A stretch of 64,000 bases of DNA from an uncultured Solibacteraceae bacterium (GCA_964573795.1 CAZNMF010000049.1:1232-65231); one strand, 5' to 3'; counted from the first letter of the stretch, positions 7,240-46,299 are shown. The notes: generated by a model from the sequence alone, not told the origin. A program made the numbers and translations.

Positions 7240-7353
7240 AGTCGTCGCATGGTTGTAATTGGGCCAAAAGACCAAAACATGCAACCAGCGACCCCTATGA
7301 CATGGTGCCGGCCGGTCCAGACGGGACGCACGTTCCCTCGCGCAAAAGTGACG

Positions 7354-31943: not shown

Positions 31944-33725
31944 ATGCAACCGCCATCCGTTCAACCGCAGCCGACGACCCTGTCCGGGAACGAGCGTGAC
32001 ATCCTGCTGACGCTGTTCGATCTCGGCCGGAAGATCGCCTCGGTCATCGAGCTCGACGAGCTGCTGCCACGCATTCCTGAGCTGGTCGGCCGGTTGATTC
32101 CATTCGACGCGTTCGCGGTCTATCTCGTCAGCGAAAAGCGGCAGATGTTCAAGCTCGGCTACGCCATCGGGTATCCGGACGACGCCGCGCGCGCCGAGCT
32201 CAGCCTGTCGGACGGGGTGCTCGGACGCGTGGTGACGACGCAGCAGCCGCTCGTCATCGGCGACGTCACCGCCGACCCGAGTTACGTCAGCGTCGTGCCA
32301 GGCATGCACGCGACGCTCGCGGTGCCGCTGATCCACAAGTCGAAGGCGATCGGCGTCCTGAACGTGCTCAGCCGCGAGCGCGATCGCTATTCGGAGCGCG
32401 ACGTCGCCATCCTGCGCCAGTTCGCCGCGCACGTTGCCACCGCGCTCGTCAACGCGCGCCTGTTTGCGCAGGAACGTCACGACGCCGAAGCGTTCGAGAC
32501 GCTGGCGGAGGTCGGCCGCGAGATGGCCGGCCTGCTCGATCTCGATCGGCTGCTCGCGCGCATCGCGCAGCTCGGACGGCGGCTCGTCGACTATCGGACG
32601 TTCGGCATCCTGCTCCTGAACGAGGCGACCGGCGAGCTCGAGATCAAGGCCGCCGTGCAGTACGGCGAACAGGTCGTCCTGCCGAAGGTACCGGTCGGCG
32701 AAGGCCTCGTCGGGTACGCGGCCAAGTATCGCGAGCCGGTCTACGCGCCCGACGTCTCGAAGGATCCGCGCTATATCCAGGTGCTCGAGGACGTGCGCTC
32801 CGAGCTCGTCGTGCCGATGCTCGTCAAGGATCGCTGCGTCGGCGTGTTCGATCTCGAAAGCCCCGACCTCGACGCGTTCTCCAAGCGCGACATCGAGATC
32901 CTCAAGCTGCTGGCGAGCCAGGCGGCCGTGGCGATCGAGAACGCGCGGCTCTATGCCGAGCTGTCCGCCAACGAGGCGCGGCTCGAGCGGGAGCTGCGCT
33001 TCGCGCAGCGCGTGCAGACGGCGCTGCTGCCGACGCAATTGCCGAAAAAGGTCCGCGGCGTGGATCTGGCCGTCTCGTTCGCGCCGGCGCGCGAGCTCGG
33101 CGGCGACTTCCACGACCTGCTCGTCCCCGAGTCCAACACGCTCATCGTGGCGGTGGGCGACGTGTCGGGCAAGGGCGTGCCCGCCGCGCTGTATTCCGTG
33201 TTCGCCGGCGAGCTGGTGCGCGGCCGCACGTTCCGCCGCCGCTATCTGCCGGAGCGATCGTCGCCAGCCAAAGTGCTGATGTCGATCAACACGATCCTCC
33301 ACGAACGACAGTTGGAGGAGTACTACTGCACGCTGTGCTACGCGTTCTTCGATTTGAAACGGCGGACCGTGACGCTCGCGAATTCGGGCGTGCCGTATCC
33401 GATCCGCGTCACCCATGGCGTCGTCAGCCAGATCGAGCTGCCGGGCGTGCCGTTGGGATCGTTCTTCGGTGTGAGCTACGACGAGGTCACGCTGCCGCTG
33501 GAGATCGGCGACGTGTTCTTCTTCGGATCCGACGGCGTGTTCGAGGCGATGAACGCGGCAAGTGAGGAGTTCTCGTCCGCGCGCGTCATGGAGATCGTCC
33601 GCGACGCCCGCACGCAGTCCGCCGCCGAGATCGTCGATCGCGTCTCGCAGGCGATCGAAAGCCATCGCGCCGGCTTTCCTTCCAACGACGACACGACGAT
33701 GATCGCGCTCCGGATCACGGAGTAA
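31944..33725 (+). CDS. GAF-GAF-PP2C (SpoIIE/RsbU-type) serine phosphatase
   Basis: Two GAF-like modules (...GVLGRVVTTQQPLVIGDV...AVPL...; ...GLVGYAAKYREPVYAPDV...VVPM...), followed by ...RELGGDFHDLL...VAVGDVSGKGVPAAL...GSDGVFEA...NDDTTMIALRI. Confidence 0.85.
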   Translation: MQPPSVQPQPTTLSGNERDILLTLFDLGRKIASVIELDELLPRIPELVGRLIPFDAFAVYLVSEKRQMFKLGYAIGYPDDAARAELSLSDGVLGRVVTTQQPLVIGDVTADPSYVSVVPGMHATLAVPLIHKSKAIGVLNVLSRERDRYSERDVAILRQFAAHVATALVNARLFAQERHDAEAFETLAEVGREMAGLLDLDRLLARIAQLGRRLVDYRTFGILLLNEATGELEIKAAVQYGEQVVLPKVPVGEGLVGYAAKYREPVYAPDVSKDPRYIQVLEDVRSELVVPMLVKDRCVGVFDLESPDLDAFSKRDIEILKLLASQAAVAIENARLYAELSANEARLERELRFAQRVQTALLPTQLPKKVRGVDLAVSFAPARELGGDFHDLLVPESNTLIVAVGDVSGKGVPAALYSVFAGELVRGRTFRRRYLPERSSPAKVLMSINTILHERQLEEYYCTLCYAFFDLKRRTVTLANSGVPYPIRVTHGVVSQIELPGVPLGSFFGVSYDEVTLPLEIGDVFFFGSDGVFEAMNAASEEFSSARVMEIVRDARTQSAAEIVDRVSQAIESHRAGFPSNDDTTMIALRITE

Positions 33726-33731
33726 GCGATC

Positions 33732-33864
33732 GCCCGGGTCTGAAGACCGGGCTATATCGGGCTACGGGCTACAGGCTACGGGCTACAGGCGACGGGCGAC
33801 GGACATCAAGCCTCACCCGCGTGTCTGTCTGCGTACAGATGTAGGCCGGGTCTTCAGACCCGGC
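33732..33864. repeat. Pair of mutually inverted GC-rich hairpins about 113 bp apart (REPIN/BIME-like doublet)
   Basis: Left hairpin gcccgggtcTGAAgaccgggc (33732-33752, one bulge). Right hairpin gccgggtcTTCAgacccggc (33845-33864, perfect 8 bp), preceded by GTAG. The two are reverse complements of each other. Confidence 0.45.
33759..33802. repeat. 7-bp tandem array (GGGCTAC)n, 6 units
   Basis: GGGCTAC GGGCTAC AGGCTAC GGGCTAC AGGCGAC GGGCGAC, read directly. Located inside the hairpin doublet. Confidence 0.85.
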
Positions 33865-33874
33865 GATCAGAAGC

Positions 33875-33903
33875 CCCCGGACCGGAGATCAACCGGTCCG
33901 GGG
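33875..33903. other. Perfect 11-bp stem hairpin CCCCGGACCGG-agatcaa-CCGGTCCGGGG
   Basis: Read directly. Lies between convergent genes and has no U-tract on either strand, so it is not a canonical intrinsic terminator. Confidence 0.4.
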
Positions 33904-34201
33904 ATGGAGCGAGGTCGGAACGGGGAAACGTACACGAGAACGGAAAGAAGAGAACGCGGAAGTGAGCCGCCACTTGTCGGTGAACGAACGGCCGGAGTGC
34001 GACGATGCCAGCGCCTGCCTGTCGTTGTTGACGCACCCCGGTGACGCCTGACGGCTCGCGCCATTGGACTTCAAGACGCGTGCCGTACCGCGCGCGCGAA
34101 AACGCGCGCGTCGCGCCGGCAAAAATTGGTGATGTCCGCTTCAAAGGACCGCACGTGCGAGGCCAGTGCCCCGCGCCGGGGACAGCCGCCCCGGCCCGCG
34201 A

Positions 34202-35398
34202 TCAGGCCTGCGCGACGTGCGCGGCTGCCGTCGTCTCGCACGGATTGATCATCGTCGCGAACTGCGCGGCGATCAGGCGGGCGAGGGCGACGACGTCGCC
34301 CGACGGTTTGGTCTCGTAGACTTCGGCGGCCAGGACGCCGTTGCAGCCCTCGGCGGTGACGAGCGGGACTGCGATCGCGCTCGTGGTGCCTGGGCCGGTG
34401 CCCGGAACGGTCTGCGGGCGCACCGTGCGGTAGGACAGAGACGTCACGTTCTCCGCGTCGACATCCAGCGCGTTGAGCTTGAGGAGGACCCGCTCCGAAT
34501 AGCCGTGCGTGAGGACGGGAAGCAGGCTCGTCCGCTCCTGGTTCACGACCCAGAGAATGAGACCGCTGGCCTCGAGAACCTTCGCGGTGCGCTCGAGCAG
34601 CGTCTGCATGTCGCGTGCGTCCATCACGCGAGCCAGATCCACGCAGAGCTCGGCGGCTTCAGTCAGGTTGACCGGCGGCAGGGCTGGCGGTGCCGGAACG
34701 GTGAGCTTGATGGGCGCCGGTGTGGTCGCGCTCGTCGCGGCCGGCGACTTGACCGGCGGCGGCAGCTCACGAAGCATGTCGGCGATCGTCGCCGGAGTCG
34801 CTTCGGACGCGCGGCTGGCACGGCCGGCGGCGAACGACAGCACCAGCACGGCCAGAAGCGCGAGCGGCGCCATGACAAGCCGGACGATCGACTGCTTGTT
34901 CAGCGTGGCCGATGCGGTCTCGATCGCGGCCGTACGGGCGGCCGTGAGCTCGCTGGCGACGAGTTGGGCCGGCGCTGCGCTGTCGGTGAAGATGACGTCC
35001 GACGCGACGAATCGCTGATCGCTTTGCAGCGCCGTCCGCGCGCGCTTGTCCTGGCTCATCAGATCCGCGATCGCGGACGTCGCGGCTTCGACATGGCCTG
35101 CAGCCGCCGGGCTGCCGACCGCATCACGCAAGCGCATCAGGCCCGCATCGAACTGCTCGGACAGCTCCGTCGCGCGCCGCATCCAGAAGTCCGGGCTCTG
35201 GTTGGCGGCCAGATACGACGCCTGTGCCGCGCGCAGATCGGAGAGCGTCACGGACAGCGCGGCGGTCTCCGTCTCGACGGTCGAGAGGCGTGACTGTCCG
35301 GCAGTGATGGATTGATGGAGGCGGAAATCCTGGAGGGCGGTTCCGGCGGCAATCAGACAAGCAAGCGTCAGCAGAACACGAAAGCGGGTGCTCTTCAC
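34202..35398 (-). CDS. Membrane-anchored protein with helical N-terminal region and C-terminal GAF-like domain
   Basis: 398 aa with a GTG start. Signal/TM at the N-terminus and a second TM (...IVRLVMAPLALLAVLVLSFAAG...). The C-terminus (...LILWVVNQERTSLLPVLTHGYS...AIAVPLVTAEGCNGVLAAE...) looks GAF-like. Confidence 0.65.
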   Translation of the reverse strand: MKSTRFRVLLTLACLIAAGTALQDFRLHQSITAGQSRLSTVETETAALSVTLSDLRAAQASYLAANQSPDFWMRRATELSEQFDAGLMRLRDAVGSPAAAGHVEAATSAIADLMSQDKRARTALQSDQRFVASDVIFTDSAAPAQLVASELTAARTAAIETASATLNKQSIVRLVMAPLALLAVLVLSFAAGRASRASEATPATIADMLRELPPPVKSPAATSATTPAPIKLTVPAPPALPPVNLTEAAELCVDLARVMDARDMQTLLERTAKVLEASGLILWVVNQERTSLLPVLTHGYSERVLLKLNALDVDAENVTSLSYRTVRPQTVPGTGPGTTSAIAVPLVTAEGCNGVLAAEVYETKPSGDVVALARLIAAQFATMINPCETTAAAHVAQA

Positions 35399-35483
35399 CT
35401 GTTCGCCCTCATATATTGGGCGTTACTATAGCAGTCCCCTCTGGTCAGGTGATCCGAAAATCGTCAGTGTTCGCGCGGAAATG

Positions 35484-37247
35484 TCACGAGCGCGGGCGAA
35501 GGACGACGTACGCCGGCAGGCCAGCCGCACGGATGCGCTGCATCAATTCCCTGGCGGGAGAGACATCGGGGCTCTCCGCCTGGAACTTGATCTTCGTGTA
35601 GCTCTTCAACGCCGCCGTGACGGCGGGATCGGCGAGCGTCGTGCGATCCATCACGAAGCAGTTCTTGCACCACGTCGCCCAGAAGTCGACGAGCACCAGG
35701 GTGCGCTCGCGCTTGGCCGTCTCGAGGCCCTCGACCAGCGACGCGTGCCAGCCCTCTTTCAGCTTTTCCTGCACGCCTGCGGAGACGCTGGCGGGATCGA
35801 CCCAGCGGTTGGCGAAGCCTTCGTACGCGAGGTAGCCGTAATACGCCGCGGTCGCGAGGATGAAGACGCCCATCGCCTGCTTGACGCGGACCATCCACAT
35901 GCCCGGCTTCGGCAGCGCGGACAGGCCGGCACCGGCGATCGGCCACGGCAGCGCCATGCCCAGGCCGAGCACGAACGGCAACGCGAGCGCCGACGTGTGG
36001 CTGGCCGCGTACATGTCGCTCGCGAACACGACGACCTGAATGACGACGGGCGCGACGCAGGCGCCGGCGAGCAGCGCGGCGACCGCGCCCATGCCGAACG
36101 CAAGCATGGCCGTGCCGCGGCTTTCCTGCTTGAACTGAATCTTGCTCGAGTAGCGCGAGAAGTCGATGCTGATGACGTCGAACATCGCCAGCGCGAGCAC
36201 GACGAAGAGCAGCGCGATGCCGACGTTGAACCACGGCGACGCGTTGATCGTGCCGAACGTGCCGGCCGTGAGGATGACGACGAGCCCGAGCACGCCGTAG
36301 GTCAGCGCCATGGCCGCGCCGTAGACCGAGCCCAGGACGAAGCCGCGTCCGCGGCCCGCGCCGCCCTTGGCTCCGGCGCCGATGATCGCCAGGTTGATCG
36401 GAATCATCGGCAGGACGCACGGCGTCAGGTTGAGCGCCAGGCCGCCGAGAAAAACGATCGCGAGAATCGCCAGCGGCCCGCGGCCATCGAACATGCCCTG
36501 CTGTTTGACGCCGTTCTCCGCGTCGTGCAGGAACGTGAGGAACTCGGCGGACGTCATGTAGCCGCCGGTGGCGAGGATGTCGAACTGATCGAACAGCGCG
36601 ACGGTCTCTTCCGGCGTCGCGGCCGCGATCGTTGTCGATGCCGCAGGCGCCGGCGCTGCGGCCGGCGTCGCGTCCGCGCCTGGCGTCTCGCCTTTGCCGA
36701 ACGCAATCGTGCCGAACACGTCGCGGTGCTGCGCGGCCGGAAGCGCCCGCGTCGCCGGCGTGATCGTGAACGTCCACTGCGTGCCGACGTGCGTGGGACG
36801 GAAGCACGTCGTGTCGTTGCAGGCCTGGTAGTAGAGCTCGCCCGGTACCGTGACCGCGCCGGCCGGCGCGGCCTTGCCGATCTCGAATTGCACGCCGACG
36901 ATCATCGTCTTCTCGTACACGGCGAGTGGCTGGTCAAAGCCGGGCAGCGGAAGATCGATCGACGCGGGGAAGACGAGCTCGCGGACGGTGACGCCCGCCG
37001 GCGGGGTGAACGTCAGATTCGTCGGCTTCAGCGACGGGTCGCTCGGCCTGTGCGACTGGATGTGCAGGTCGTCGGGAATGACGACGCGCAGGGCGGCGCG
37101 CAGGGTCGTGCCCGGATGGGCTTCCGCGCGCTCGACGAGTCCCTCGCCGACCAGCGGCCCTGGACCCAACTGTCGCGCCCGCGGCACAGCCGCCGCGGCC
37201 GTCAGCAGCAGGGCGGCGCCGATGAGAACGAGTCGTCGTGGGCTCAT
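35484..37247 (-). CDS. dsbD: Thiol:disulfide interchange protein DsbD-type (N-terminal domain + CcdA-like TM core + C-terminal thioredoxin)
   Basis: Inner start MSPRRLVLIGAALLL (signal). TM core with ...LNLTPCVLPMIP... and ...AGACVAPVV..., and C-terminal thioredoxin fold DFWATWCKNC. The track ORF 35484..38234 extends spuriously upstream into nuoG. Confidence 0.85.
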   Translation of the reverse strand: MSPRRLVLIGAALLLTAAAAVPRARQLGPGPLVGEGLVERAEAHPGTTLRAALRVVIPDDLHIQSHRPSDPSLKPTNLTFTPPAGVTVRELVFPASIDLPLPGFDQPLAVYEKTMIVGVQFEIGKAAPAGAVTVPGELYYQACNDTTCFRPTHVGTQWTFTITPATRALPAAQHRDVFGTIAFGKGETPGADATPAAAPAPAASTTIAAATPEETVALFDQFDILATGGYMTSAEFLTFLHDAENGVKQQGMFDGRGPLAILAIVFLGGLALNLTPCVLPMIPINLAIIGAGAKGGAGRGRGFVLGSVYGAAMALTYGVLGLVVILTAGTFGTINASPWFNVGIALLFVVLALAMFDVISIDFSRYSSKIQFKQESRGTAMLAFGMGAVAALLAGACVAPVVIQVVVFASDMYAASHTSALALPFVLGLGMALPWPIAGAGLSALPKPGMWMVRVKQAMGVFILATAAYYGYLAYEGFANRWVDPASVSAGVQEKLKEGWHASLVEGLETAKRERTLVLVDFWATWCKNCFVMDRTTLADPAVTAALKSYTKIKFQAESPDVSPARELMQRIRAAGLPAYVVLRPRS

Positions 37248-37267
37248 GGCGCGCGGACGCGGTGGTC

Positions 37268-39043
37268 CTACTTCACTTCCTTGAGCGGAATCACTTCCGC
37301 GCGGGGCAGCGGGCCGAAGTCCTCGCCGAACTTGATTGGCGGCAGGTCCTGGAACATGAAGTCCCACTTCCAGCGCTCGGACGGATTCGAGGCCTGCAGC
37401 CAGTGCTTCGCAGAGACCGGGCGGTTGAACGTGACCGTCGCCAGAGCCGCGTAGCCTGGGACGTCCTTCAGCCGCTCCGCGATCGCGTGGCGGATCGCGT
37501 TCGCCGACGTGTAGCTGATCGTCGCGCCGAACACCGGGCCGAGCTTGCCGAGAATCTGCCAGTCTTCGATTGCGTCTCCCGGCGGCGTGATGACCATCGA
37601 CGCGGCCTGCACGTGACCCGTGACGTTCGTGTAGGTCGCGTCCTTCTCGACGAACGCGGAGCCCGGCAGCACGATGTCCGCGGCCTCGGCGAGCGGCGTG
37701 TGCAGCACGCCCTGGACGATGAGCGTCTGAATCTTGCCGGCAGCACGCGCCGCGAGGATCCAGTCGACGTCGCCGATCGAGCCGTCTGGGCCGGGATCGA
37801 GCACGTAGAGCACATTCGCCTGGCCGGATTCGACGACGGATTTGATGGCGGAGAGATCGGCGGGCGCGCTCTCGCGTCCGACGGGGAAGCCGAGATCGCG
37901 CGCGCCGCGCACGTTCGGCGCGTCGACGGCCGGGATGCGGAACTTCGTGTTGGCCGGCTGCGGCTTCTCGCGGTAGCGCCAGCCGAAGCTCACGCCGCCG
38001 GCCTGGCCGGCGATCTCCTGCAGGACGAACAGCTCTTCGAGCGACGCGTGACCCGAGACGAAGAAGTACACGTTCGACGGTCCGCCCGCGGCCGTGACGG
38101 CATCGCCAACGGCGGTCAGCGCGTCGCCCCAGGGCAGCGCGTCGGCCGTCGCGCCGCGCCGCACGTGCGGCTGCAGCAGGCGGCGGTTGCCTTCGACCCA
38201 GTGATAGTCGAAGCGGCCGATGTCGCACATCCAATAGCTGTTGATTTCAGGGTTCAGGCGCGGCGTCATGCGCACGAGGCGCGCGCCCTTGGCCCATTCC
38301 GGCTTGGCTTTGATCCACGCCGTCGTGTTGCAGCCGCGCTCGCACAGCGTGCAGATCGTGTCGACCGCGTGCGGGTTGTCCCACGGCCGCGACTTGAACC
38401 GGTAGTCGCGCGTCGTGATCGCGCCGACCGGGCAGACGTCCATCAGGTTGCCCGAGAGCAGCGACACGACGCCGTGCTCTTCGAACGTGGCGATTTCGCT
38501 GCCGTAGCCGCGATTCGCGATGGCGATCTGCGCGTCGCCGTCCACTTCGCGCATGAACCGCACGCAGCGCGTGCAGAGAATGCAGCGGTTGCGGTTGAGC
38601 ATCAGCGTCGGGCCGAAGTCGACGTCGGCCTTGACGCCCTCGCCGTCGAACACGCGGCGCGGGAACTCCATCCGGCTGCGCTCCGGTCCGAACGTGTACG
38701 AGAAGTCCTGGAGCGGACACTCGCCGCCTTTGTCGCAGACGGGGCAGTCGAGCGGATGATTGGCGAGGAGGAACTCGAACACGCTGGCGCGCGCGGCCTG
38801 GACCTCGGCCGAGCCCGTCGTGACGACCATGCCGTCCGTGCAGATCGTCGAGCACGACGTCTGCAGCTTCGGCATCTTCTCGATCTTCACGATGCAGACG
38901 CGGCAGGAGCCGTCGACGCCGAGGCCGGGGTGGTAGCAGTAGTACGGCACGGAGATGCCGCTCTTGATGGCGGCCTGAAGGACCGTCTGTCCCTTCTCTA
39001 CCGTGACTTCGCGGCCGTCGATTGTCAGCGTGACGGTATCCAT
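37268..39043 (-). CDS. nuoG: NADH-quinone oxidoreductase subunit G-like Fe-S protein (orphan, no other nuo genes nearby)
   Basis: Start MDTVTLTIDGREV. The 2Fe-2S region is CYHPGLGVDGSCRVCIV, with HPLDCPVCDKGGECPLQD, CILCTRCVRF, CPVGAIT and CTLCERGCN, followed by a truncated molybdopterin-oxidoreductase-like domain. Confidence 0.8.
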   Translation of the reverse strand: MDTVTLTIDGREVTVEKGQTVLQAAIKSGISVPYYCYHPGLGVDGSCRVCIVKIEKMPKLQTSCSTICTDGMVVTTGSAEVQAARASVFEFLLANHPLDCPVCDKGGECPLQDFSYTFGPERSRMEFPRRVFDGEGVKADVDFGPTLMLNRNRCILCTRCVRFMREVDGDAQIAIANRGYGSEIATFEEHGVVSLLSGNLMDVCPVGAITTRDYRFKSRPWDNPHAVDTICTLCERGCNTTAWIKAKPEWAKGARLVRMTPRLNPEINSYWMCDIGRFDYHWVEGNRRLLQPHVRRGATADALPWGDALTAVGDAVTAAGGPSNVYFFVSGHASLEELFVLQEIAGQAGGVSFGWRYREKPQPANTKFRIPAVDAPNVRGARDLGFPVGRESAPADLSAIKSVVESGQANVLYVLDPGPDGSIGDVDWILAARAAGKIQTLIVQGVLHTPLAEAADIVLPGSAFVEKDATYTNVTGHVQAASMVITPPGDAIEDWQILGKLGPVFGATISYTSANAIRHAIAERLKDVPGYAALATVTFNRPVSAKHWLQASNPSERWKWDFMFQDLPPIKFGEDFGPLPRAEVIPLKEVK

Positions 39044-39083
39044 AACGGGTCGATCATATCCCAAGGAAACGGGGGAGTTTCCG

Positions 39084-40112
39084 CTACCGCCCTTCGCGAT
39101 CCAGCAGCTCGTGCAGCAGCACCTGGATGATGGCCGCGGTGGGGACGGCGAGCAGCGCGCCGACGATGCCGAGCAGCTCGGAGCCGATGAGCAGGGCCGC
39201 GATGACCGTGACCGGGCTGACGCCGACCTGGCGCTCCATCACGCGCGGGACCAGGAAGTGGTTCTCGATGAACTGCTGTGTCGCGAAATAGATGATGGCG
39301 AAGACGCCCGTGTGGACCGACACCGTCATTGCCACGAGCACGGCCGGAATCGCGGCGAGGATCGGGCCCACGACGGGGATCAGCTCGCCGATCGCCGCGA
39401 GCAGCGCGAGCACGTAGAAGTACGGCACGCCCAGCAGCCAGAGGCCGAGCGCGGCCGTCGTGCCGATGATGCCCGACAGCAGCAGCTGGCCGCCGAGCCA
39501 CGCGCTGACCTTCACCGTCACGCTGTGAATCACCCGCGCCAGCATCGCGCGATGTTCGCGCGCGAAGAGACGGACGAACGCGACCTGCAGCGCCGGCGCT
39601 TCGAGCAGCAGGTAGGAGGGCAGCACGAGCACCGTGACGAGCGCGCCAATCACGCCGAGCACGCCCTGGAGCGCGCCGAGCACCCCCACCAGCGCGACGC
39701 CCGGGTTGGGCGTCTGCCGCAGCAGCTCGCTCCATGAGTACGTGTGCGCGATGAGGTGATTGCGCAGCAGCACGTCCTGGAACGTATCGACGTAGGCCGG
39801 CAGGTTCGTCCACAGCTCGCGGCCCTGCGTGATGAGCGGTGGGATCACGAGCGTAATCGCGAGCACGATCGCGGCGATCAGGCCGAGATAGATGATGAGG
39901 ATTGCGACCCAGCGCGGCATGCGCCGGCCGGCCGCGCGTCGCTCGAGCCAGCGCACGGCCGGGCTCATGCCGATCGCCAGCAAGCCCGCGACATAGAGCA
40001 GCAGCAGGACCTGCCGCAGCAGGAACGCCGCGTAGAGCAGCACGATGCCCGAGAGCGCCGTGAAGACGCCGAAGACGATCAGGCTGCGCGGGTTGCGGCG
40101 GGTCGCGTTCAC
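39084..40112 (-). CDS. AI-2E family transporter (PerM/YhhT, UPF0118)
   Basis: 342 aa and polytopic, with the typical C-terminal ...LIGSELLGIVGALLAVPTAAII... segment. Confidence 0.85.
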   Translation of the reverse strand: MNATRRNPRSLIVFGVFTALSGIVLLYAAFLLRQVLLLLYVAGLLAIGMSPAVRWLERRAAGRRMPRWVAILIIYLGLIAAIVLAITLVIPPLITQGRELWTNLPAYVDTFQDVLLRNHLIAHTYSWSELLRQTPNPGVALVGVLGALQGVLGVIGALVTVLVLPSYLLLEAPALQVAFVRLFAREHRAMLARVIHSVTVKVSAWLGGQLLLSGIIGTTAALGLWLLGVPYFYVLALLAAIGELIPVVGPILAAIPAVLVAMTVSVHTGVFAIIYFATQQFIENHFLVPRVMERQVGVSPVTVIAALLIGSELLGIVGALLAVPTAAIIQVLLHELLDREGR

Positions 40113-41317
40113 CGGCTCAGGAATCTGGCGGTGAAATCCGCCATGTCGTCGTAGATCGCGTCGAGCTCGTCAGGCGGCGCCAGATAGACGATGCGGAAGA
40201 AGCCGTCGGCCGGCGCGGTGCCGAACCCCGATCCGTACACGCACAGGATGCCCGTGTCGCGCAGCAGGGCGAGGATGTAGTCCTGATCCGTCGTGCCGCG
40301 CGGCAGCGTGACCTGCGGCATTGCGTAGAACGCTGCGCGCGGCATCACGCAGCGCATCCCCGGAATCGCCGACAGCCTTCTGGTCGTCAGCTCCGCGCGT
40401 ACGTGCAGGGCGTGCGCGAACGCGGCTTGATGGGCGCGATCGCCGTTGAGCGCCGGCTCGATCGCGTACTGCATCGGGCCAGGGCTGCACAGACGGCCGT
40501 CGGCCATCTTCCTGATGCCGGCGAGCACCTCATCGAGCCGACGGCAGTTGCTGACGACGAGCCATCCCGTCCGCCAGCCCGGCGCGAGATACGCCTTGGA
40601 CAGCGACGAGAAGGAGATGATTGGCGCGTCGGGCGCCAGCGATCCGATGAGCGGCGTGGGGCCGTCGAACGAGACGTCGCCGTACACCTCGTCGGCGAGG
40701 ATCGTCAGACCCGCGCGATCGGCGAAATCGATCACCGCGCGCCGCGTCGCTTCGGGATACACCGCGCCCGTCGGGTTGTTCGGATCGATGACGACGATCG
40801 CGCGCGTCGACGAGGTCGTGCGGCGGCGGATGTCGTCGAGATCGGGCTGCCAGCCGCGCTCGGGATCGGTGCGATAGTAGACGGCGCGCGCGCCGATCTT
40901 GGCCAGCACCGCGGTGTAGAGCGGATACGTCGGCGTCGGCACCAGCACTTCGTCGCCGGGATCGGCGAGCACGCTGAGCGCCAGCTCGATGCCCTCGGAC
41001 GTGCCTTGCGTGACGACGACGCGATCGGCGGGAACGGGCATGCCGCGGCGGGTGTACTCCTGCGCGACGGCGGCGCGCGCCGGCTCGATGCCGGCCGACG
41101 GCACGTAGCCGTTGTGGCCGTCCCGCATGGCGCGCTCGACCGCCTCAATCAGGTGCGGCGGCGTCCTGAACCCGAATTGGACGGGATCGCCGATGTTCAG
41201 ATAGCGCACCCGGCGGCCCGCCGCTTCGACCTTCTTCGCTTCGACGACGATGTTGCGGATCGCGTAGCTGAAGGCGTTCACGCGGGCAGAGACGTGGGCC
41301 GCGGCGCTCGTGGGCAT
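40109..41317 (-). CDS. Class I/II pyridoxal-phosphate aminotransferase (AlaA-like)
   Basis: 402 aa with ...YLNIGDP...GYVPSAGI..., ...VIDPNNPTGAVY..., and the PLP-lysine context SFSSLSKAYLAPGWRTGW. Confidence 0.9.
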   Translation of the reverse strand: MPTSAAAHVSARVNAFSYAIRNIVVEAKKVEAAGRRVRYLNIGDPVQFGFRTPPHLIEAVERAMRDGHNGYVPSAGIEPARAAVAQEYTRRGMPVPADRVVVTQGTSEGIELALSVLADPGDEVLVPTPTYPLYTAVLAKIGARAVYYRTDPERGWQPDLDDIRRRTTSSTRAIVVIDPNNPTGAVYPEATRRAVIDFADRAGLTILADEVYGDVSFDGPTPLIGSLAPDAPIISFSSLSKAYLAPGWRTGWLVVSNCRRLDEVLAGIRKMADGRLCSPGPMQYAIEPALNGDRAHQAAFAHALHVRAELTTRRLSAIPGMRCVMPRAAFYAMPQVTLPRGTTDQDYILALLRDTGILCVYGSGFGTAPADGFFRIVYLAPPDELDAIYDDMADFTARFLSR

Positions 41318-41415
41318 AGAGCCCTATCGTAGCGTAGTGGCCGGAAAATCCCGGCGCGCGTGCAGGTGCAGGCATCGAGGCGAGGGGCCGATAGATGGGG
41401 AAGAGAGCACGAGGC

Positions 41416-41550
41416 GGGCGGCCACGGGGGGCCGCCCCTACGCGGGCTGCCGTCGGCGGTCTGCGGTCCGAGGATCCGGTGGCCCTTGTGGCCGCCTCGC
41501 AGGTCACTGCGGATTGGCCGACGCTGCAGGGGCGGCCCCCGTGGCCGCCC
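41416..41550. repeat. Second pair of mutually inverted GC-rich hairpins about 114 bp apart (REPIN/BIME-like doublet)
   Basis: Left hairpin gggcggccACGGGGggccgccc (41416-41437), followed by CTAC, which reads GTAG on the other strand. Right hairpin gggcggccCCCGTggccgccc (41530-41550), preceded by GCAG. Same overall geometry as 33732-33864 but with different stem sequences. Confidence 0.45.
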
Positions 41551-41574
41551 GTCACCCGTCGCCCGTGGCCCGCT

Positions 41575-42189
41575 ATGTCCAAAAACTTCGCATCCACACT
41601 CCTCGTTCTCGCCGCGCTCGTCGCGGCGCCGCAGCTGGCCTCCGCGCAGGGCTTTGCGCTCGGGCCGCGTATGAGCTTCGTTCGCGGCGACGTGCCGTCC
41701 GGCACGCCGTCGACGCGCTTCCTTGGCGGGACGGTGCGGATGGGATCGTCGAAGCACGTCGCGTTCGAGCTGGCGCTCGACTATCGCAGCGAGACCAGCG
41801 TGGACGGCCTATCCCGGCTGCGCGAGCGGCCGTTCCAGGGATCGATGCTGCTGTTCCCCGTGCGATCGACCGTCGCGCCGTATCTGCTCGCGGGGTACGG
41901 CATCTATCAGCAGACCTACGACACCTTGGATCCGGCCAACGGTCTGGCGCTCTCGTCGACCGTCTCGCGCAAGAGCGGCGCGCACATCGGCTTCGGCGCG
42001 GAAGTGCTCGTCGTCCGTCACGCGGCCTTCTACATCGACTATCGTCTGCGTTTCGTCCGGTTCGGATCGCCGGAAGGCGACGAGGATCCCGTCGACATCC
42101 CGGGGCAGTCGGTCATCCCCGGCCTCAAGAACGTGCAGTTGTCGCATCAGGGGTCGATGATCACGAGCGGCGTGGCATTTTATTTCTGA
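41575..42189 (+). CDS. Outer-membrane beta-barrel protein (OmpW/porin-like small barrel)
   Basis: Inner start MSKNFASTLLVLAALVAAPQLASAQG (signal peptide). Alternating-hydrophobic beta-strand pattern and a C-terminal ...GVAFYF. Confidence 0.65.
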   Translation: MSKNFASTLLVLAALVAAPQLASAQGFALGPRMSFVRGDVPSGTPSTRFLGGTVRMGSSKHVAFELALDYRSETSVDGLSRLRERPFQGSMLLFPVRSTVAPYLLAGYGIYQQTYDTLDPANGLALSSTVSRKSGAHIGFGAEVLVVRHAAFYIDYRLRFVRFGSPEGDEDPVDIPGQSVIPGLKNVQLSHQGSMITSGVAFYF

Positions 42190-42215
42190 GATTCAGTGTC
42201 ACAATCTGCCGGACG

Positions 42216-42701
42216 ATGATCGGTCCCGGACTGCTCGTGTTGCGGCTCGCGCTGGCGACCGTGCTGGTGGCGCATGGCAGCCACGAGTTGTTCGGGCTGT
42301 TCGGCGGGCCCGGCGCAGGGCCCGGCGGGCTGGCGCAGACCGCCGCGCACTTTGCGAGCATCGGCCTCTCGCCCGGGATCTTCTTTGCGGTGTTGATCGG
42401 CCTGGTCCGGCTCGCAGGCGGCGCGTTGATCGGTGTCGGATACTTCGCGCGCTGGGCCGCGCTCGCGGTCGCCATCCTCGAAGGCCTCGAGACCTGGAAG
42501 GACTTCGCGCGCTGGGGCCTCTTCCTCAACTGGACGCTCGATCCCACCCGCGGCCACGGCATGGAATACGCCATCGTCACGATCGCGGCGCTCGTGTGTG
42601 TGACGCTGGCCGGATCGGGCGAGTGGTCGATCGACGGCGTGCGCGCGCGGTCGGCGGCCTCGCGCGCGGCCGGGCGAGCCAGGCTCAGGGATAGAGTCTG
42701 A
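42216..42701 (+). CDS. DoxX-family membrane protein
   Basis: MIGPGLLVLRLALATVLVAHGSHELFGLFGG..., four hydrophobic segments, 161 aa. Confidence 0.75.
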   Translation: MIGPGLLVLRLALATVLVAHGSHELFGLFGGPGAGPGGLAQTAAHFASIGLSPGIFFAVLIGLVRLAGGALIGVGYFARWAALAVAILEGLETWKDFARWGLFLNWTLDPTRGHGMEYAIVTIAALVCVTLAGSGEWSIDGVRARSAASRAAGRARLRDRV

Positions 42702-42719
42702 TGACGCGTCCAGTGCGTG

Positions 42720-42783
42720 TATCTCGCTATCTCTCTATCTCCCTATCGCACTATCTGATCATCGAGCTATCGGGTTATCTGCC
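42720..42783. repeat. 8-bp tandem array, 8 units, consensus (C)TATCTCN
   Basis: TATC (or CATC) begins at 42720, 42728, 42736, 42744, 42752, 42760, 42768 and 42776, an exact 8-bp period read directly. Confidence 0.85.
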
Positions 42784-42786
42784 TCT

Positions 42787-42814
42787 TTCGAACTTCGTAC
42801 TTCGAACTTCGAAC
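42787..42814. repeat. 7-bp tandem array (TTCGAAC)n, 4 units
   Basis: TTCGAAC TTCGTAC TTCGAAC TTCGAAC, ending 9 nt before the SDR start codon. Confidence 0.85.
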
Positions 42815-42822
42815 GTCCGTCG

Positions 42823-43563
42823 ATGGATCTGACCTCTCGAGTCGTGTTGCTGACCGGCGGCCGCCGGATGGGCGTGACGATCGCGACGGCGTGCGCGCTG
42901 CGGGGCGCGGACGTCGCGGTGGTGTATCGCAAGTCGAAAGACGATGCGGAGGCGGTGCGCGACGCGGTGACGGCGCAGGGACGCCGGGCCGAGCTGGTGC
43001 AGGCCGATGTCTCCGATCCGGCGTCGGCGACGGCCATGATCGCCGCCGTCGATCGCGCGTTCGGCCGGCTCGACGTGCTCGTCAACATGGCGTCGATCTA
43101 CGAGTCCGTCCCGCTCGATCAGCTGACGGTCGATCATTGGCGCCGGCAGCTGTCCGTCGACTTGCACGGCACGTTTCATTCGTCGCTCGCGGCGATTCCG
43201 CTGCTGCGCCGCAGCGGCGGCGGCCGCATCATCAACTTCAGCGACTGGCTGGTCGCCAGCGAGCGGCCGCGCTACGCGGGATACGTGCCGTACTACGTCG
43301 CGAAGGCCGGCGTGAAGGCGCTGACGGAAGCGCTCGCCCTCGAGCTCGCCTCCGATCGGATCCTCGTCAATGCGATCGCGCCGGGCCCGATTCTCGCGCC
43401 GCCGGGCACGACCGACGACGAGAGCGCGGCGGTCGCGCGCGCCACGCCGCTCGGCCAGTGGGGCGGGCCGGGCGAGATCGCGAAAGCCATCCTCGCGCTG
43501 ATCGACTCCGACTTCATCACGGGCGAGACGATCCGCGTCGACGGCGGACGCCACATCGCGTGA
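42823..43563 (+). CDS. Short-chain dehydrogenase/reductase (SDR) family oxidoreductase
   Basis: Contains VVLLTGGRRMGVTIA, NMASI, the active-site YxxxK (YYVAKAGVKAL) and PGPI. Confidence 0.9.
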   Translation: MDLTSRVVLLTGGRRMGVTIATACALRGADVAVVYRKSKDDAEAVRDAVTAQGRRAELVQADVSDPASATAMIAAVDRAFGRLDVLVNMASIYESVPLDQLTVDHWRRQLSVDLHGTFHSSLAAIPLLRRSGGGRIINFSDWLVASERPRYAGYVPYYVAKAGVKALTEALALELASDRILVNAIAPGPILAPPGTTDDESAAVARATPLGQWGGPGEIAKAILALIDSDFITGETIRVDGGRHIA

Positions 43564-43573
43564 GAAGACCCCT

Positions 43574-43629
43574 GACAACTCAGACCTGAGAACCCAGAAC
43601 TGAGAACCGAGAACCGAGAACCCAGAATC
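43574..43629. repeat. 7-bp tandem array (GAGAACC)n, 8 units
   Basis: GACAACT CAGACCT GAGAACC CAGAACT GAGAACC GAGAACC GAGAACC CAGAATC. Fills the SDR-nitroreductase spacer. Confidence 0.85.
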
Positions 43630-43634
43630 GCATC

Positions 43635-44261
43635 ATGAGTGACGACGAGCATCCGAAGGTCGCGGCGGCGGATCACGCGATCCTCGACGTCATTCGGCAT
43701 CGCTGGAGCCCGCGCGCGTTCGACGCGGCGGCCGACGTCAGCGATGCGGAGCTGCGGCAGCTCTTCGAAGCCGCGCGCTGGGCGCCTTCGTCGGCCAACG
43801 AGCAGCCGTGGCGGTTCGTCGTGGCGACGTCGCGGCGGAATCCGCGCGCGTTCGCGGCGCTGCTCGACACGCTCGAGCCGCGAAACCAGGCGTGGGCGAG
43901 GCACGCGCCGGCGCTGGTGCTCGTCGCCATCCGGCTCACGTTCGAGCGAAACGGCGCGCCGAACGCGATGGCGTGGTGGGACGCCGGGCAGGCCGTGGGG
44001 TTTCTGTCGCTTCAGGCGACGGCCATGGGCCTCGCGACGCGGCAGATGGCCGGCTTCGACGTCGAGCGCATCCGAACGGCCTGCAACGTGCCGTCGCTCT
44101 TCGAGCCCGCGATCGTGATGGCCATCGGCTATGCGGGAGATCCCGACCGTCTCGAGGTCGAGAAACATCGCGCCGCCGAGCTCCAGCCGCGCCAGCGCCG
44201 GCCGATCGACGAGTTCGTCTTCGACGGCACGTGGGGGATGGGGTTTGGAACGTCGAAGTAA
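43635..44261 (+). CDS. Nitroreductase-family protein
   Basis: Contains ...RHRWSPRAFD...EAARWAPSSANEQPWRFVV... 208 aa. Confidence 0.85.
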   Translation: MSDDEHPKVAAADHAILDVIRHRWSPRAFDAAADVSDAELRQLFEAARWAPSSANEQPWRFVVATSRRNPRAFAALLDTLEPRNQAWARHAPALVLVAIRLTFERNGAPNAMAWWDAGQAVGFLSLQATAMGLATRQMAGFDVERIRTACNVPSLFEPAIVMAIGYAGDPDRLEVEKHRAAELQPRQRRPIDEFVFDGTWGMGFGTSK

Positions 44262-44287
44262 GAATCCGATCGGGAAACGCGACGTCC

Positions 44288-45133
44288 TTACCCCTCCGCC
44301 AGCGCCAGCACGCGCTCCAGCGTCTTCCTCGCGCTCTTGACCGGCAGATTCGACACGTAGAAGTGACGCACGCCGCACGCGCGCAGCGTGCGGATCGTCT
44401 GCGCGCATACCTCATCCGGCGTCGCACCCGCGGAGAACTCGCGCGTGAGCTCGTCGACGGGCACAGGCAGGAAATGGCGCAGCGTCTCGAGCGTCTTCGA
44501 GCTCGCGCTGCGGTAGTAGAACACGCCGAACACGCCGGGCAGCGCGATGCGCTGCCGCTCGTACTCCGTCTGGAAGCGCTCGATCGCGGCGCGATGATGA
44601 TGCGAGACGATCTGCGTCAGGAAGTACTCGCCGTTGAACGTGCCGTCGGTGAGATAGCCGATCTGCCGCGCGGTGTCGGCGTGCGGGTTGGCCCAGCCGC
44701 CGAGCGACAGGCCCGGCACGTGCGCCGCGATGTGGCGGCGCAGCTCCCACGCGTGACTCACGCAACGCGGCGGCCCGACGGTGCGATCGCCGCCGAGCAC
44801 CACGAGCGATCGAAACCCTTCCTGCCAGGCGCGCTCGGCGTAGCTCAGACAGAAGTCCAGCGAATGCTTCGTCGTCAGAAACGGCACGACGTGATCGCGC
44901 GGCACGTCGGTGCCGAGGTTGATCACGAGATGCCGCAAGTTGTGCTCTTCACGCGCGCCGACGGCGCTGTCGGTGAGGAACACGAACGTGCCCGCGCGCA
45001 CGAGGCCGCGGACCGCGTGGTACGTGTCGATCCACGCGTCGCGGCCCGCCGCCGCATCGAGCTCGGCCCGCGGCGGCCGCAATTCGACGGACACGACGGG
45101 ATCCTTCAACAGGGCCTGCACGAGCGCGGACAT
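44288..45133 (-). CDS. Methylenetetrahydrofolate reductase (MTHFR/MetF) family protein
   Basis: Inner start MSALVQALLKDPVVSVELRPPR... (SxExxPP-type N-terminus). About 281 aa and TIM-barrel-like. Assignment to the family is by eye only. Confidence 0.6.
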   Translation of the reverse strand: MSALVQALLKDPVVSVELRPPRAELDAAAGRDAWIDTYHAVRGLVRAGTFVFLTDSAVGAREEHNLRHLVINLGTDVPRDHVVPFLTTKHSLDFCLSYAERAWQEGFRSLVVLGGDRTVGPPRCVSHAWELRRHIAAHVPGLSLGGWANPHADTARQIGYLTDGTFNGEYFLTQIVSHHHRAAIERFQTEYERQRIALPGVFGVFYYRSASSKTLETLRHFLPVPVDELTREFSAGATPDEVCAQTIRTLRACGVRHFYVSNLPVKSARKTLERVLALAEG

Positions 45134-45221
45134 CCCACGAAGTATAACGAGCGCGCGCCGAGCACCGCGCGGGTCCGCCGCCCACGCGCCGCTGAGATGA
45201 GGGCAGGTAGCTCGATGGCCA

Positions 45222-45295
45222 GATGATCCGCAGATAGTCCGATAGCCAGATGCGAGATAGTGCGTCAGCGCGATAGTGAGATAGCGCGATACAGC
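45222..45295. repeat. 8-bp-period array of GATAG-containing units (reverse complement of the 42720 array)
   Basis: GATAG, GATGC or GATAC begins at 45233, 45241, 45249, 45256, 45272, 45280 and 45288. This is an 8-bp period with one 1-nt slip. Units such as GAGATAGT and GCGATAGT are the reverse complement of CTATCTCN. Confidence 0.7.
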
Positions 45296-45327
45296 GGCTC
45301 TCGTCCTCCTTGCCATAACATGGACCG

Positions 45328-46299
45328 TTGATGGCCACCGCTCTCGCCGCGCTGATGGCGCTGCCCGCCGTCGAGCTGGCGCCGCATCGCACGCCGGTCG
45401 ATCGGCTGGCGCGTCTCGAGCGCGCGCTCGGGCCCGAGTGCCCGCGCCTGCTGATCAAGCGCGACGATCTGCTGTCGTTCGCGCTCGGCGGCAACAAGGT
45501 GCGCAAGCTGCAGCTGCTCGCGGCCGAGGCGCAGCGCGCCGGCGCCGACACGCTCATCACCTGCGGTGCGGTGCAGTCGAATCACGCACGCGTGACGGCC
45601 GCGACGGGCGCGGTGCTCGGCTGGCGCGTCGTCCTCGTGCTCAGCGGCGACCCGCCGGCGCAGCCGACGGGCAATCTCTCGCGCGATCGGGTCTTCGGCG
45701 CCGACGTACGCATCGTGGGGGATCGCAGGGCACGCGCCGCGATGATGGAAGACGTCGCGGAGGAGATGCGCCGCGCCGGCCGACGTCCGTTCGTGATTCC
45801 GCTCGGCGGATCGACGCCGATCGGCGCCGCCGGCATGGCGCGCGCGATCGCGGAGCTCGGGGCCGACCGCATCAGACCCGACGTCATCGTTCACGCGTCG
45901 TCGTCCGCGGGCACGCAGGCCGGGCTGACGATGGGGTGCGCGTTGTTCGGTCTGAAGACGACGGTGCTCGGCATCAGCGTCGACGAGCCGGCAGACGTCC
46001 TGCGCGCGAACGTCGAGTCGCTCGTCGGGCGCATGGCGGAGGCGCTCGGCGCGCGCGCGGAGACGGTCCTGCGATCGCATCCGACCGACGTCGACGACAG
46101 TCAGATCGGCGATGGCTATGGCATCGCGACGCCCGCGTCGGAGGAGGCGTTGACGCTCGTGGCGCGAACCGAGGGCATCATCCTCGATCGGGTGTACGAG
46201 TCGAAGGCGATGGCCGGTCTGATGGCGCGCATCCGCGACGGACGTTTCACCAGGGATCAGACCGTGTTGTTCTGGCACACAGGGGGGTTGAGTGAGTAA
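45328..46299 (+). CDS. PLP-dependent ACC deaminase / D-cysteine desulfhydrase family protein
   Basis: Contains ...LLIKRDDLLSFALGGNKVRKLQLL... (PLP lysine motif GGNKxRKL) and ...GAVQSNHARV... Confidence 0.85.
   Translation: MMATALAALMALPAVELAPHRTPVDRLARLERALGPECPRLLIKRDDLLSFALGGNKVRKLQLLAAEAQRAGADTLITCGAVQSNHARVTAATGAVLGWRVVLVLSGDPPAQPTGNLSRDRVFGADVRIVGDRRARAAMMEDVAEEMRRAGRRPFVIPLGGSTPIGAAGMARAIAELGADRIRPDVIVHASSSAGTQAGLTMGCALFGLKTTVLGISVDEPADVLRANVESLVGRMAEALGARAETVLRSHPTDVDDSQIGDGYGIATPASEEALTLVARTEGIILDRVYESKAMAGLMARIRDGRFTRDQTVLFWHTGGLSE

Follow-up and report, generated by a model that had tools for sequence, protein, structure and literature searches.

Short tandem arrays occupy several intergenic spacers in a 64,000-nt stretch of DNA from an uncultured Solibacteraceae bacterium (GCA_964573795.1, CAZNMF010000049.1:1232-65231), hereafter referred to as the window, with positions counted from its first letter. 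A preliminary description had pointed out three heptamer arrays in this stretch, likened them to repeats of cyanobacteria and proposed that their copy number might tune neighboring genes. Having followed these arrays in near-identical strains, in sister species and across 80 related loci, we consider it probable that they are slippage-driven long simple sequence repeats with units of 7-9 bp, which pervade the non-coding DNA of Vicinamibacterales and are tolerated, and possibly used, in transcribed spacers. Their behavior is that of evolutionarily labile spacer modules, in contrast to switches that turn on and off at high frequency. Vicinamibacterales (Acidobacteria subdivision 6) rank among the most abundant bacteria of soil, and hardly any have been cultured.

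Tandem arrays of the window and their length alleles

The window was searched with Tandem Repeats Finder (TRF), by direct reading and by a lag-autocorrelation scan, with 20 shuffles of the sequence as a control. TRF and direct reading agreed on the three heptamer arrays named in the preliminary description (i.e., arrays 1-3; coordinates in Table 1), none of which is expected by chance. All three have a period of 7, and their characterization as clean proved overstated, as roughly half of the units are variants. Array 1 (6.4 copies, 86% matches in TRF) reads GGGCTAC GGGCTAC AGGCTAC GGGCTAC AGGCGAC GGGCGAC and array 2 (4.0 copies, 90% matches) reads TTCGAAC TTCGTAC TTCGAAC TTCGAAC. Array 3 (43572-43627 according to TRF, 76-85% matches) comprises about eight units of GAGAACC/CAGAACT with a 14-nt higher order; four of these are exact GAGAACC and the others are variants. 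It covers 58 of the 71 nt between the SDR and nitroreductase genes (43564-43634) and thus essentially constitutes this spacer, as had been noticed. Array 2 indeed lies close to the SDR start codon (ATG at 42823), with a gap of 8 nt instead of the 9 nt given previously.

In addition, we found a fourth heptamer array (array 4; 3.9 copies and 85% matches in TRF) and two arrays of CTATC/GATAG units with a period of 8 bp (42720-42782 and 45220-45295). Lag-autocorrelation over the whole window recovered arrays 1-3, the segment 41546-41572 (period 7) and the segment 42719-42755 (period 8), and no others. In the shuffled sequences, at most 0.1 matches per period were obtained with a 20-nt scanning window and none with a 35-nt one, and CTATC-type 8-bp arrays did not occur. 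The arrays are therefore head-to-tail repeats of 5-11 nt that are longer than chance allows, which is what defines long simple sequence repeats (LSSRs). All six lie within 12 kb (33.7-45.3 kb) in five spacers; the other ~40 spacers, by a rough count, hold no array.

The preliminary description had also raised the possibility of assembly artefacts. This is not the case, because the arrays are reproduced in independent assemblies: exact-protein look-up located the same region on the NCBI metagenome-assembled genome (MAG) GCA_035550115.1 and on >20 JGI metagenome contigs, which belong to one sample series and were assembled independently. Moreover, each array is shorter than one sequencing read, and in relatives assembled as contigs of 0.5-3 Mb the arrays reach 33 units.

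Alleles were compared among contigs that match the window at 100% in the flanking protein. Array 1 occurs with 4, 6 or 7 units (+7 and -14 nt), together with one single-nucleotide polymorphism inside a unit. Array 3 has 8 units in at least 18 contigs and 10 units (+14 nt) in two, the shorter allele thus dominating in at least 18 of 20. Array 2 did not vary in 13 near-identical contigs. Alleles differ between samples, with one allele predominating, and the length changes are exact multiples of the unit, as slippage predicts. Copy number therefore varies in natural populations at arrays 1 and 3. Two anchor-gap-anchor scans of metagenome contigs for array 1 alleles returned 0 matches; this collection evidently lacks the population in question.

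Other spacers of the region vary as well. Strains L005/L110 and L111 (two samples) carry 30 extra nt in the spacer between the aminotransferase and outer-membrane protein (OMP) genes, which contain the heptamer array GGCTTAC GGCTCAT GGCTTGC GGCCTAC and sit at the 5' base of the hairpin of this spacer (window ~41395-41412). The CTATC arrays change between strains (L005) only outside the TATC core. In strain L103, the array at 45220-45295 is largely replaced by other sequence, and this strain has in its place hairpins GGGCTTCAGCCC / GGGCTGAAGCCC, which resemble the arm motif around array 1 described below.

Arrays in related genomes

Species-representative genomes were scanned with the SDR protein of the window. 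The matches are Vicinamibacterales/Acidobacteriota MAGs, the best one sharing 93% amino-acid identity. We assign the window to a population of Vicinamibacterales (Acidobacteriota). We applied TRF to the window and 80 related orthologous loci from 80 genomes (1.42 Mb in total), retaining arrays of at least 3.5 copies. Genes of the 80 loci were called crudely from the GC content at third codon positions; the calls cover 83% of the DNA and over-extend 5' ends, which makes start-codon distances taken from them unreliable, while distances to stop codons and to homology-defined SDR starts are sound.

Period 7 is the modal period of the lineage, followed by 8 and 9, with 109, 35 and 22 arrays, respectively, compared to 3 each at periods 6 and 3. 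At least one array of period 7 or 8 is present at 52 of the 81 loci, which, together with array 4, shows that the arrays are not restricted to the three spots first noticed. These period-7/8 arrays occur at 0.10 per kb with a median of 4.7 copies and a maximum of 33, and across the 81 loci array density did not correlate with GC content. Very long arrays were noted in L026, in which GTGCGGG is repeated 31 times (2333-2546) and 33 times (12561-12790) at sites 10 kb apart in one MAG.

The suggested enrichment in intergenic DNA was borne out, as 126 of the 144 period-7/8 arrays (~87%) lie outside called coding sequence; period-9 arrays are evenly divided (11 coding, 11 non-coding). Roughly one spacer in ten holds an array of 7-9 bp units. 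Density is highest in tandem, i.e., co-directional, spacers (0.75 per kb), followed by convergent (0.58) and divergent ones (0.23). Among array ends that face a stop codon, 46% lie within 20 nt of it. In many species, arrays occupy the spacers that immediately flank the SDR orthologue on either side. Their units are unrelated and even their periods may differ, and they often reach to 1-15 nt from the start codon or begin at the stop codon.

The units are diverse, with 76 distinct ones among the 109 heptamer arrays, yet they are not distributed at random among genomes: 18.7% of the array pairs located >300 bp apart in the same locus have related units, compared to 4.2% of pairs between genomes (odds ratio 5.3, p 3.5e-10). 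Array 1, array 4 (as reverse complement, GGGCGAC) and the strain-specific GGCTTAC block represent one unit family in this genome. Local clusters with a common unit were also observed in relatives, i.e., at least five arrays of CCCTGAG within 5 kb in L085 and four arrays of GTGAGTTG in L083. Such clusters, here and in the relatives, suggest spread to neighboring spacers. The preferred period likewise differs by genome (7, 8 or 9).

The arrays also show a strand asymmetry. Just 3' of stop codons, the sense strand is rich in G and purines (p 0.005), and arrays before start codons tend to be C-rich, which did not reach significance. Inspected by eye for G-quadruplex (G4) potential, array 1 has GGG at 33759, 33766, 33780 and 33794 with loops of 4, 11 and 11 nt, a non-canonical arrangement; G-runs are absent from arrays 2 and 3, and those on the complement of array 4 are loop-poor. 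By this inspection, none of the four shows the series of at least four G3 tracts with short loops that characterizes GGGAATC-type repeats.

Comparison to sister species reveals a rapid turnover. The SDR-nitroreductase spacer measures ~10 nt in the sister species L019, from which the 93% match derives, and ~21 nt in L020, in both cases without array 3. The whole hairpin element that encloses array 1 (see below) is replaced in L019 by a segment of unrelated sequence, in which TTCGAAG is repeated four times, and the convergent spacer 3' of this element is 95% identical to L019 over 250 nt, compared to 92% for the flanking coding DNA. The OMP-proximal array is longer in L019 (GCCCGTN x5.7). At the site of array 2, the unit in L019 is TTCNNAG (5.3 copies), and L020 has AGCCTGT heptamers, which are unrelated. 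In the 8-bp array at 42720-42782, L019 keeps the TATC core and varies at the remaining positions. Judging from these differences, the arrays change faster than any other part of spacers that are conserved in other respects. Outside the array element, the convergent spacer (33869-34140) contains further hairpins; no credible Rfam match and no convincing small open reading frame were found in it, and from its sequence it could be a conserved small RNA or 3'-untranslated region (UTR) element.

Hairpins, leaders and gene context

The spacer that holds array 1 measures 476 nt and separates two convergent genes; the array lies 33 nt 3' of the stop codon of one of them, which encodes a GAF-GAF-SpoIIE phosphatase. 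It is enclosed by inverted arms of 19-24 nt (33734-33752 / 33845-33863; 19 nt, 95% complementary) with the core CCGGGTCTGAAGACCCGG, and the region folds at -104 kcal/mol compared to -75 kcal/mol in shuffles (z -6.5). The second hairpin just 3' of this element is conserved in L019 along with the following 250 nt (95% identity) and is likely an ordinary 3'-end hairpin of the convergent spacer. The aminotransferase/OMP spacer is also strongly structured (-123 versus -103 kcal/mol, z -4.8), and array 4 extends from the 3' base of its hairpin. The leaders formed by arrays 2 and 3 are not significantly structured; the predicted RNA of array 3 is essentially unstructured.

Repeat-built hairpins are frequent in the relatives. 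All 17 of the close pairs of arrays with related units (at most 150 bp apart) are inverted, and such pairs fold as near-perfect stems of 25-50 bp with -47 to -103 kcal/mol. Conversely, 18 of the 28 long intergenic hairpins (ungapped, stem of at least 20 bp) have tandemly periodic arms, 17 of them at period 7, 8 or 9 and one at 11. Periodic hairpins do not differ in context from ordinary long hairpins (6 convergent, 7 tandem, 1 divergent) and often lie 0-25 nt after a stop codon.

The palindromic motif CCCGGGTCTGAAGACCCGGG makes up both arms around array 1 and has one further copy in a distant Acidobacteriota MAG (L026, 5475-5494); hairpins of this type may represent a small REP-like family. 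A search with the arm motif CCGGGTCTGAAGACCCGG gave no copy elsewhere in the window and one (L026) in 1.4 Mb of relatives.

Three of the heptamer arrays directly precede genes: array 4 ends 2 nt before the ATG (41575) of a gene for an OMP_b-brl (outer-membrane beta-barrel) protein, array 2 ends 8 nt before that of the SDR gene, which has no Shine-Dalgarno (SD) site, and array 3 ends 5 nt before an ATG. SD sites are absent from all 18 annotated starts of the region 33-53 kb of the window (contig L001). A TAnnnT box, similar to a -10 element, precedes many of these 18 starts at a distance of 6-12 nt, and SDR orthologues in many species show it as well, which suggests that leaderless or very short-leader mRNAs may be widespread in Vicinamibacterales. 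Genes preceded by arrays lack the TAnnnT box and therefore must be leadered.

Genes were assigned from Pfam and from the gene calls attached to the matching public contigs. The array at 45220-45295 lies in the divergent spacer between the gene of a 281-aa protein (44288-45133, minus strand) and a PALP gene, and is oriented to the 281-aa gene as the array at 42720-42782 is to the SDR gene. The two CTATC arrays thus bracket the SDR-nitroreductase-281-aa cluster, each upstream of a gene transcribed away from the array. In both, the (C)TATC core is invariant and the other positions are free, and the sister species L019 keeps the core; none of the other 79 related loci has 8-bp arrays with a CTATC core. 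On this basis, the CTATC arrays look more like a reiterated recognition site than like a slippage product. The 281-aa protein also adjoins the SDR and nitroreductase genes in L019, L020 and L021 (71-94% identity). Considered as a candidate array-binding regulator, it gave no sequence match in Pfam, NCBIfam or PDB. Exact-protein look-up of the 398-aa GAF protein likewise gave no match. A scan for tRNA and tmRNA found none, and Rfam, used at the gathering threshold on the whole window and in E-value mode on 33700-34250, returned no credible family.

Table 1 Tandem arrays and hairpins located in the 64,000-nt window.
Feature	Position	Strand	Basis
Heptamer array 1, GGGCTAC/AGGCTAC/GGGCGAC	33758..33802	.	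TRF, sequence, alleles on contigs with identical 593-aa flanking protein
~140-nt hairpin element enclosing array 1	33728..33868	+	inverted repeats, RNA fold, comparison with L019
Second strong hairpin CCCCGGACCGG...CCGGTCCGGGG, just 3' of the array 1 element	33875..33903	+	RNA fold, L019 comparison
Long hairpin, divergent aminotransferase/OMP spacer	41415..41551	+	inverted arms 41415-41437 / 41529-41551, RNA fold
Heptamer array 4, CGCCCGT CACCCGT CGCCCGT GGCCCG	41546..41572	+	TRF, sequence
8-bp-period array, 8 units (C)TATCNNN(N), upstream of the SDR gene	42720..42782	+	TRF
Heptamer array 2, TTCGAAC x4, nearly palindromic unit	42787..42814	+	TRF, sequence
Heptamer array 3, GAGAACC/CAGAACT, SDR-nitroreductase intercistronic spacer of 71 nt	43572..43629	+	TRF, sequence
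Second 8-bp CTATC array (GATAG on the + strand), ~9 units	45220..45295	-	TRF

Origin of the arrays and their place among known repeats

We propose that the arrays would be born and resized by slipped-strand mispairing, in which loops of at least 5 nt may escape MutS-type repair and heptamers would be the favored slippage size, as in many bacteria. Units could then be copied among nearby spacers, and from one arm of a palindrome to the other, by template switching or gene conversion. Selection would remove arrays only where they are harmful, purging them from coding and promoter-only DNA and tolerating them in transcribed spacers. Any effect on phenotype would, judging from position and folding only, be exerted at the RNA level. 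Facing arrays of complementary units may form hairpins of 20-50 bp in terminator-like positions and act in 3'-end formation or protection or as RNase III substrates; array 1 would sit inside a structure of this kind. Single arrays (2, 3 and 4) would serve as SD-less leaders or intercistronic spacers of variable length.

Several observations weigh against this slippage model. Plain slippage leaves the preference for 7-9 over 4-6 unexplained, and it does not account for the recurrence of one unit across the spacers of a genome or for genomes with mainly 9-mers. The unrelated units in the orthologous SDR-flanking spacers of many species suggest a hot spot or selection for having an array, and the CTATC 8-mers keep an invariant core while their other positions drift, as a recognition site would. 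Nor did tests that bear on the proposed RNA-level roles lend them support. Array hairpins in the relatives lack U-tracts and are thus not intrinsic terminators by that criterion. Array units did not differ in self-complementarity from composition-matched shuffles (mean percentile 0.52, Wilcoxon p 0.05); being neither less nor more self-complementary than shuffled units, they gave no support to the idea that the arrays are selected as unstructured leaders. Finally, mismatches in the hairpins do not discriminate between selection on RNA and on DNA, with 4 G·U versus 5 A·C mismatches on the sense strand, few events in all.

The preference for 7-9 nt, the genome-specific unit dialects and the conserved CTATC core keep a binding factor or a templated origin in play as minority readings. 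The better placed of these, which we regard as unlikely although worth retaining, is that the arrays are reiterated sites of a sequence-specific nucleic-acid-binding protein and thus a regulon that is selected and not merely tolerated; Csp-, S1- or CsrA-like proteins would be putative binders on RNA, and a transcription factor on the CTATC 8-mers. Genome-specific unit families do recur across spacers, and the CTATC core is invariant across strains and the sister species and stands in the same orientation upstream of two genes. Arrays also abut SD-less starts, like the TAACTGA repeats of Beggiatoaceae, for which S1/Csp/CsrA binding has been proposed, and since periods of 7-9 nt do not match the helical repeat of DNA, recognition of single strands (RNA) fits better than that of duplex DNA. 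However, this genome has four or more unrelated units in a stretch of only 12 kb, the census yielded 76 distinct units among 109 heptamer arrays, and sister species differ by the gain, loss or replacement of arrays without any change in the genes. Nor was a candidate binding protein found, the adjacent 281-aa protein having no recognizable family.

A somewhat less probable variant is that the arrays are no passive products of slippage and that each Vicinamibacterales genome has a dedicated trans-acting system of its own, of which they would be the output or the target. This could be an activity that writes repeats, such as template-directed addition at hairpins or stalled forks, or a protein or RNase that reads them, co-evolves with them and processes or terminates transcripts at the arrays. 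The unit dialects quantified above, the genome-specific period, the refilling of orthologous spacers and the fact that about two-thirds of the long hairpins are built from repeats argue for it.

The proposal of the preliminary description, that the arrays are contingency (phase-variable) loci in which reversible 7-bp changes re-space promoter, ribosome-binding site (RBS) or terminator and thereby switch or grade adjacent genes, fares poorly, and we consider it improbable. It would agree with the whole-unit length polymorphism among near-identical strains, with the three arrays that end 2-8 nt before start codons, with the outer-membrane beta-barrel protein encoded by one adjacent gene and with the precedent of (ATCTTTC)n upstream of H. 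influenzae hmw1A, the expression of which falls as copies rise (PMC12721329). However, the units are imperfect (76-90% matches), which lowers slippage rates, a single allele predominates in ~20 samples, and array 2 does not vary. Since the two genes that flank array 1 converge on it, this array cannot tune a promoter or RBS, and divergent promoter spacers are poor in arrays throughout the lineage. The neighboring genes are mostly metabolic (SDR, nitroreductase), with only array 4 preceding an OMP gene. As SD sites are essentially lacking, re-spacing of an RBS is an implausible mode of action, and a scan of 33600-45500 with consensus promoters and terminators found no site at any array and counts no higher than in shuffles. 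The sequence data thus do not support promoter or RBS tuning by the arrays. The same view has been taken of the arrays of Xanthomonas and Nostoc (PMC4692102).

Still less probable is a mobile or templated origin, in which palindromes with tandem-repeat arms, similar to miniature inverted-repeat transposable elements (MITEs), or units added by a telomerase- or retroelement-like activity would subsequently be subject to slippage. Blocks do come and go as a whole, i.e., the 58 nt of array 3, the 30 nt upstream of the OMP gene and the 140-nt array 1 element that is absent from L019. One unit may occupy several nearby spacers, the arrays cluster within 12 kb of the window, and the period differs by genome. 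Against this, the flanks of the array 1 element show no target-site duplication relative to L019, its arm motif is as good as unique in the window and the relatives, and no transposase or reverse transcriptase is found among the Pfam calls of the flanking genes. As a MITE, the array 1 element was accordingly rejected in spite of its inverted arms. In the relatives, inverted arrays that share a unit enclose loops of different sequence, and the hairpins therefore do not derive from a single element by copying. Similarity by chance or an artefact of assembly, for which only the general caution that short-read assemblers may mis-size repeats can be cited, has a negligible likelihood given that shuffles yield essentially no arrays and that arrays shorter than a read recur in >20 assemblies made independently, their alleles being separated by exact multiples of the unit.

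The slippage model places the arrays next to several known repeat systems. Short tandemly repeated repetitive (STRR) sequences are found in heterocystous cyanobacteria, with CCCCAGT, TTGGTCA and CAACAGT as canonical units. In a descriptive sense, the comparison to STRRs made at the outset is apt: the arrays are dispersed intergenic heptamers of differing units, with four in the window and wide occurrence among the related loci. Furthermore, both comprise several unit families and are useful as strain fingerprints (Mazel et al. 1990; PMC4692102). They differ in phylum and GC content, and the window units GGGCTAC, CGCCCGT, TTCGAAC and GAGAACC do not match those of STRRs. Among the relatives, only L083 has CCCCAGT-type arrays (7252-7308 and 16159-16203), the unit AGTCCCC being the same as that of cyanobacterial STRR1 and as Nostoc GGGGACT. 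We do not claim homology to STRRs in any testable sense.

It had further been supposed that heptamer arrays were undescribed for high-GC genomes, which the literature does not bear out. As cited in two later papers, a survey of long simple sequence repeats reported heptamer-dominated ones across prokaryotes, including high-GC Burkholderia, Actinobacteria and Xanthomonas, and proposed slippage as the origin of the heptamer excess (Mrazek 2007, via PMC4679880, PMC4692102). The LSSRs of that survey (Mrazek, Guo & Shah 2007), as summarized in these two papers, resemble our arrays in having units of 5-11 nt with 7 the commonest, in the non-coding location of units that are no multiple of 3 and in the scattering of rich lineages. 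Our arrays differ in the additional abundance of 8- and 9-mers and in the frequent pairing of arrays as hairpins. Vicinamibacterales or Acidobacteriota were not found among the LSSR-rich lineages reported there.

A close parallel is provided by GGGAATC in Xanthomonas and GGGGA(C/T)T in Nostoc PCC 7120, heptamers that form arrays at hundreds of intergenic sites (Rehm et al. 2015, PMC4692102). As in our lineage, the arrays of Nostoc and of the high-GC Xanthomonas are fewer between divergent genes, lie near the ends of open reading frames and occur as inverted pairs able to form stem-loops; the G-rich strand is the coding strand downstream of genes and the non-coding strand upstream, sister species occupy the same spacers with other lengths and sequences, and the neighboring genes belong to no functional class (PMC4692102). 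In contrast, those genomes have one dominant G4-capable unit, while here there are many units, most of them not G4-capable, and periods 8 and 9 are frequent. The Xanthomonas and Nostoc arrays share nearly all distributional features with ours, and from the literature as a whole we file our arrays as a known kind in a new lineage. The strand asymmetry and the avoidance of divergent spacers, common to all three, argue for a common cause that is open to comparative study.

Two systems illustrate possible roles in leaders. Direct TAACTGA repeats have been described in marine Beggiatoaceae, cyanobacteria and Bacteroidetes (MacGregor 2015, PMC4679880). They resemble arrays 4, 2 and 3 in standing a few nt before SD-less start codons, and the downstream genes show no functional pattern; they differ in having one fixed unit in fixed orientation with 2-6 copies, compared to the varied units and the many post-stop or hairpin-forming arrays seen here. 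In Haemophilus influenzae, (ATCTTTC)n in the 5'-UTR of hmw1A/hmw2A forms one arm of a long RNA hairpin that is cleaved by RNase III (PMC12721329). The hmw case resembles our arrays in that a heptamer array upstream of a gene is transcribed and changes its copy number by slippage (PMC12721329); as the hmw 5'-UTR shows that a heptamer array can work in this way, an RNA-level role is conceivable. The hmw arrays are, however, perfect repeats of 11 or more copies, present at two loci per genome, and their phase-variable role in virulence is proven (PMC12721329). Those described here are imperfect, short, genome-wide and located beside housekeeping genes. None of the window units matched STRR1-3, TAACTGA, GGGAATC or the hmw units. 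Array 3 has the TRF consensus CTGAGAA, which differs at a single position from a rotated TAACTGA; we treat this as coincidence.

Repetitive extragenic palindromic (REP) sequences and bacterial interspersed mosaic elements (BIMEs) of enterobacteria are extragenic palindromes after stop codons or between convergent or co-directional genes, to which a role at mRNA 3' ends is ascribed. In REPs, a REP-associated tyrosine transposase (RAYT) has spread copies of a single conserved palindrome. The array 1 element and the periodic hairpins of the relatives share the extragenic position after stops or in convergent and co-directional spacers; in contrast to REPs, they are built locally from tandem short units and differ in sequence from site to site.

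Taken together, the arrays are not a new kind of element. What is new is the occurrence of a known kind in Vicinamibacterales, with many units, frequent 8- and 9-mers and repeat-built hairpins as local peculiarities; in the literature on Acidobacteria and Vicinamibacterales, we found no description of such arrays. Their frequency and the repeat-built hairpins bear on the annotation of intergenic regions, terminators and 5' leaders in Vicinamibacterales MAGs. The arrays are ready-made markers of the variable-number tandem repeat (VNTR) type for strain tracking in metagenomes, and they add an independent high-GC lineage to the question of why bacteria favor heptamer repeats.

A further observation concerns the SDR upstream region in a clade that is free of arrays (L027, L029, L031, L037, L040, L044, L045, L054, L060, L063, L086). 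Its members have a conserved motif ~30-90 nt upstream of the SDR start, TTACGG-N(4-8)-GAAA-N-CTTTCG, followed by (C)TAGACTGG(C)GCC directly before the start codon. We regard this motif as a candidate operator or leader element combined with a putative -10 box.

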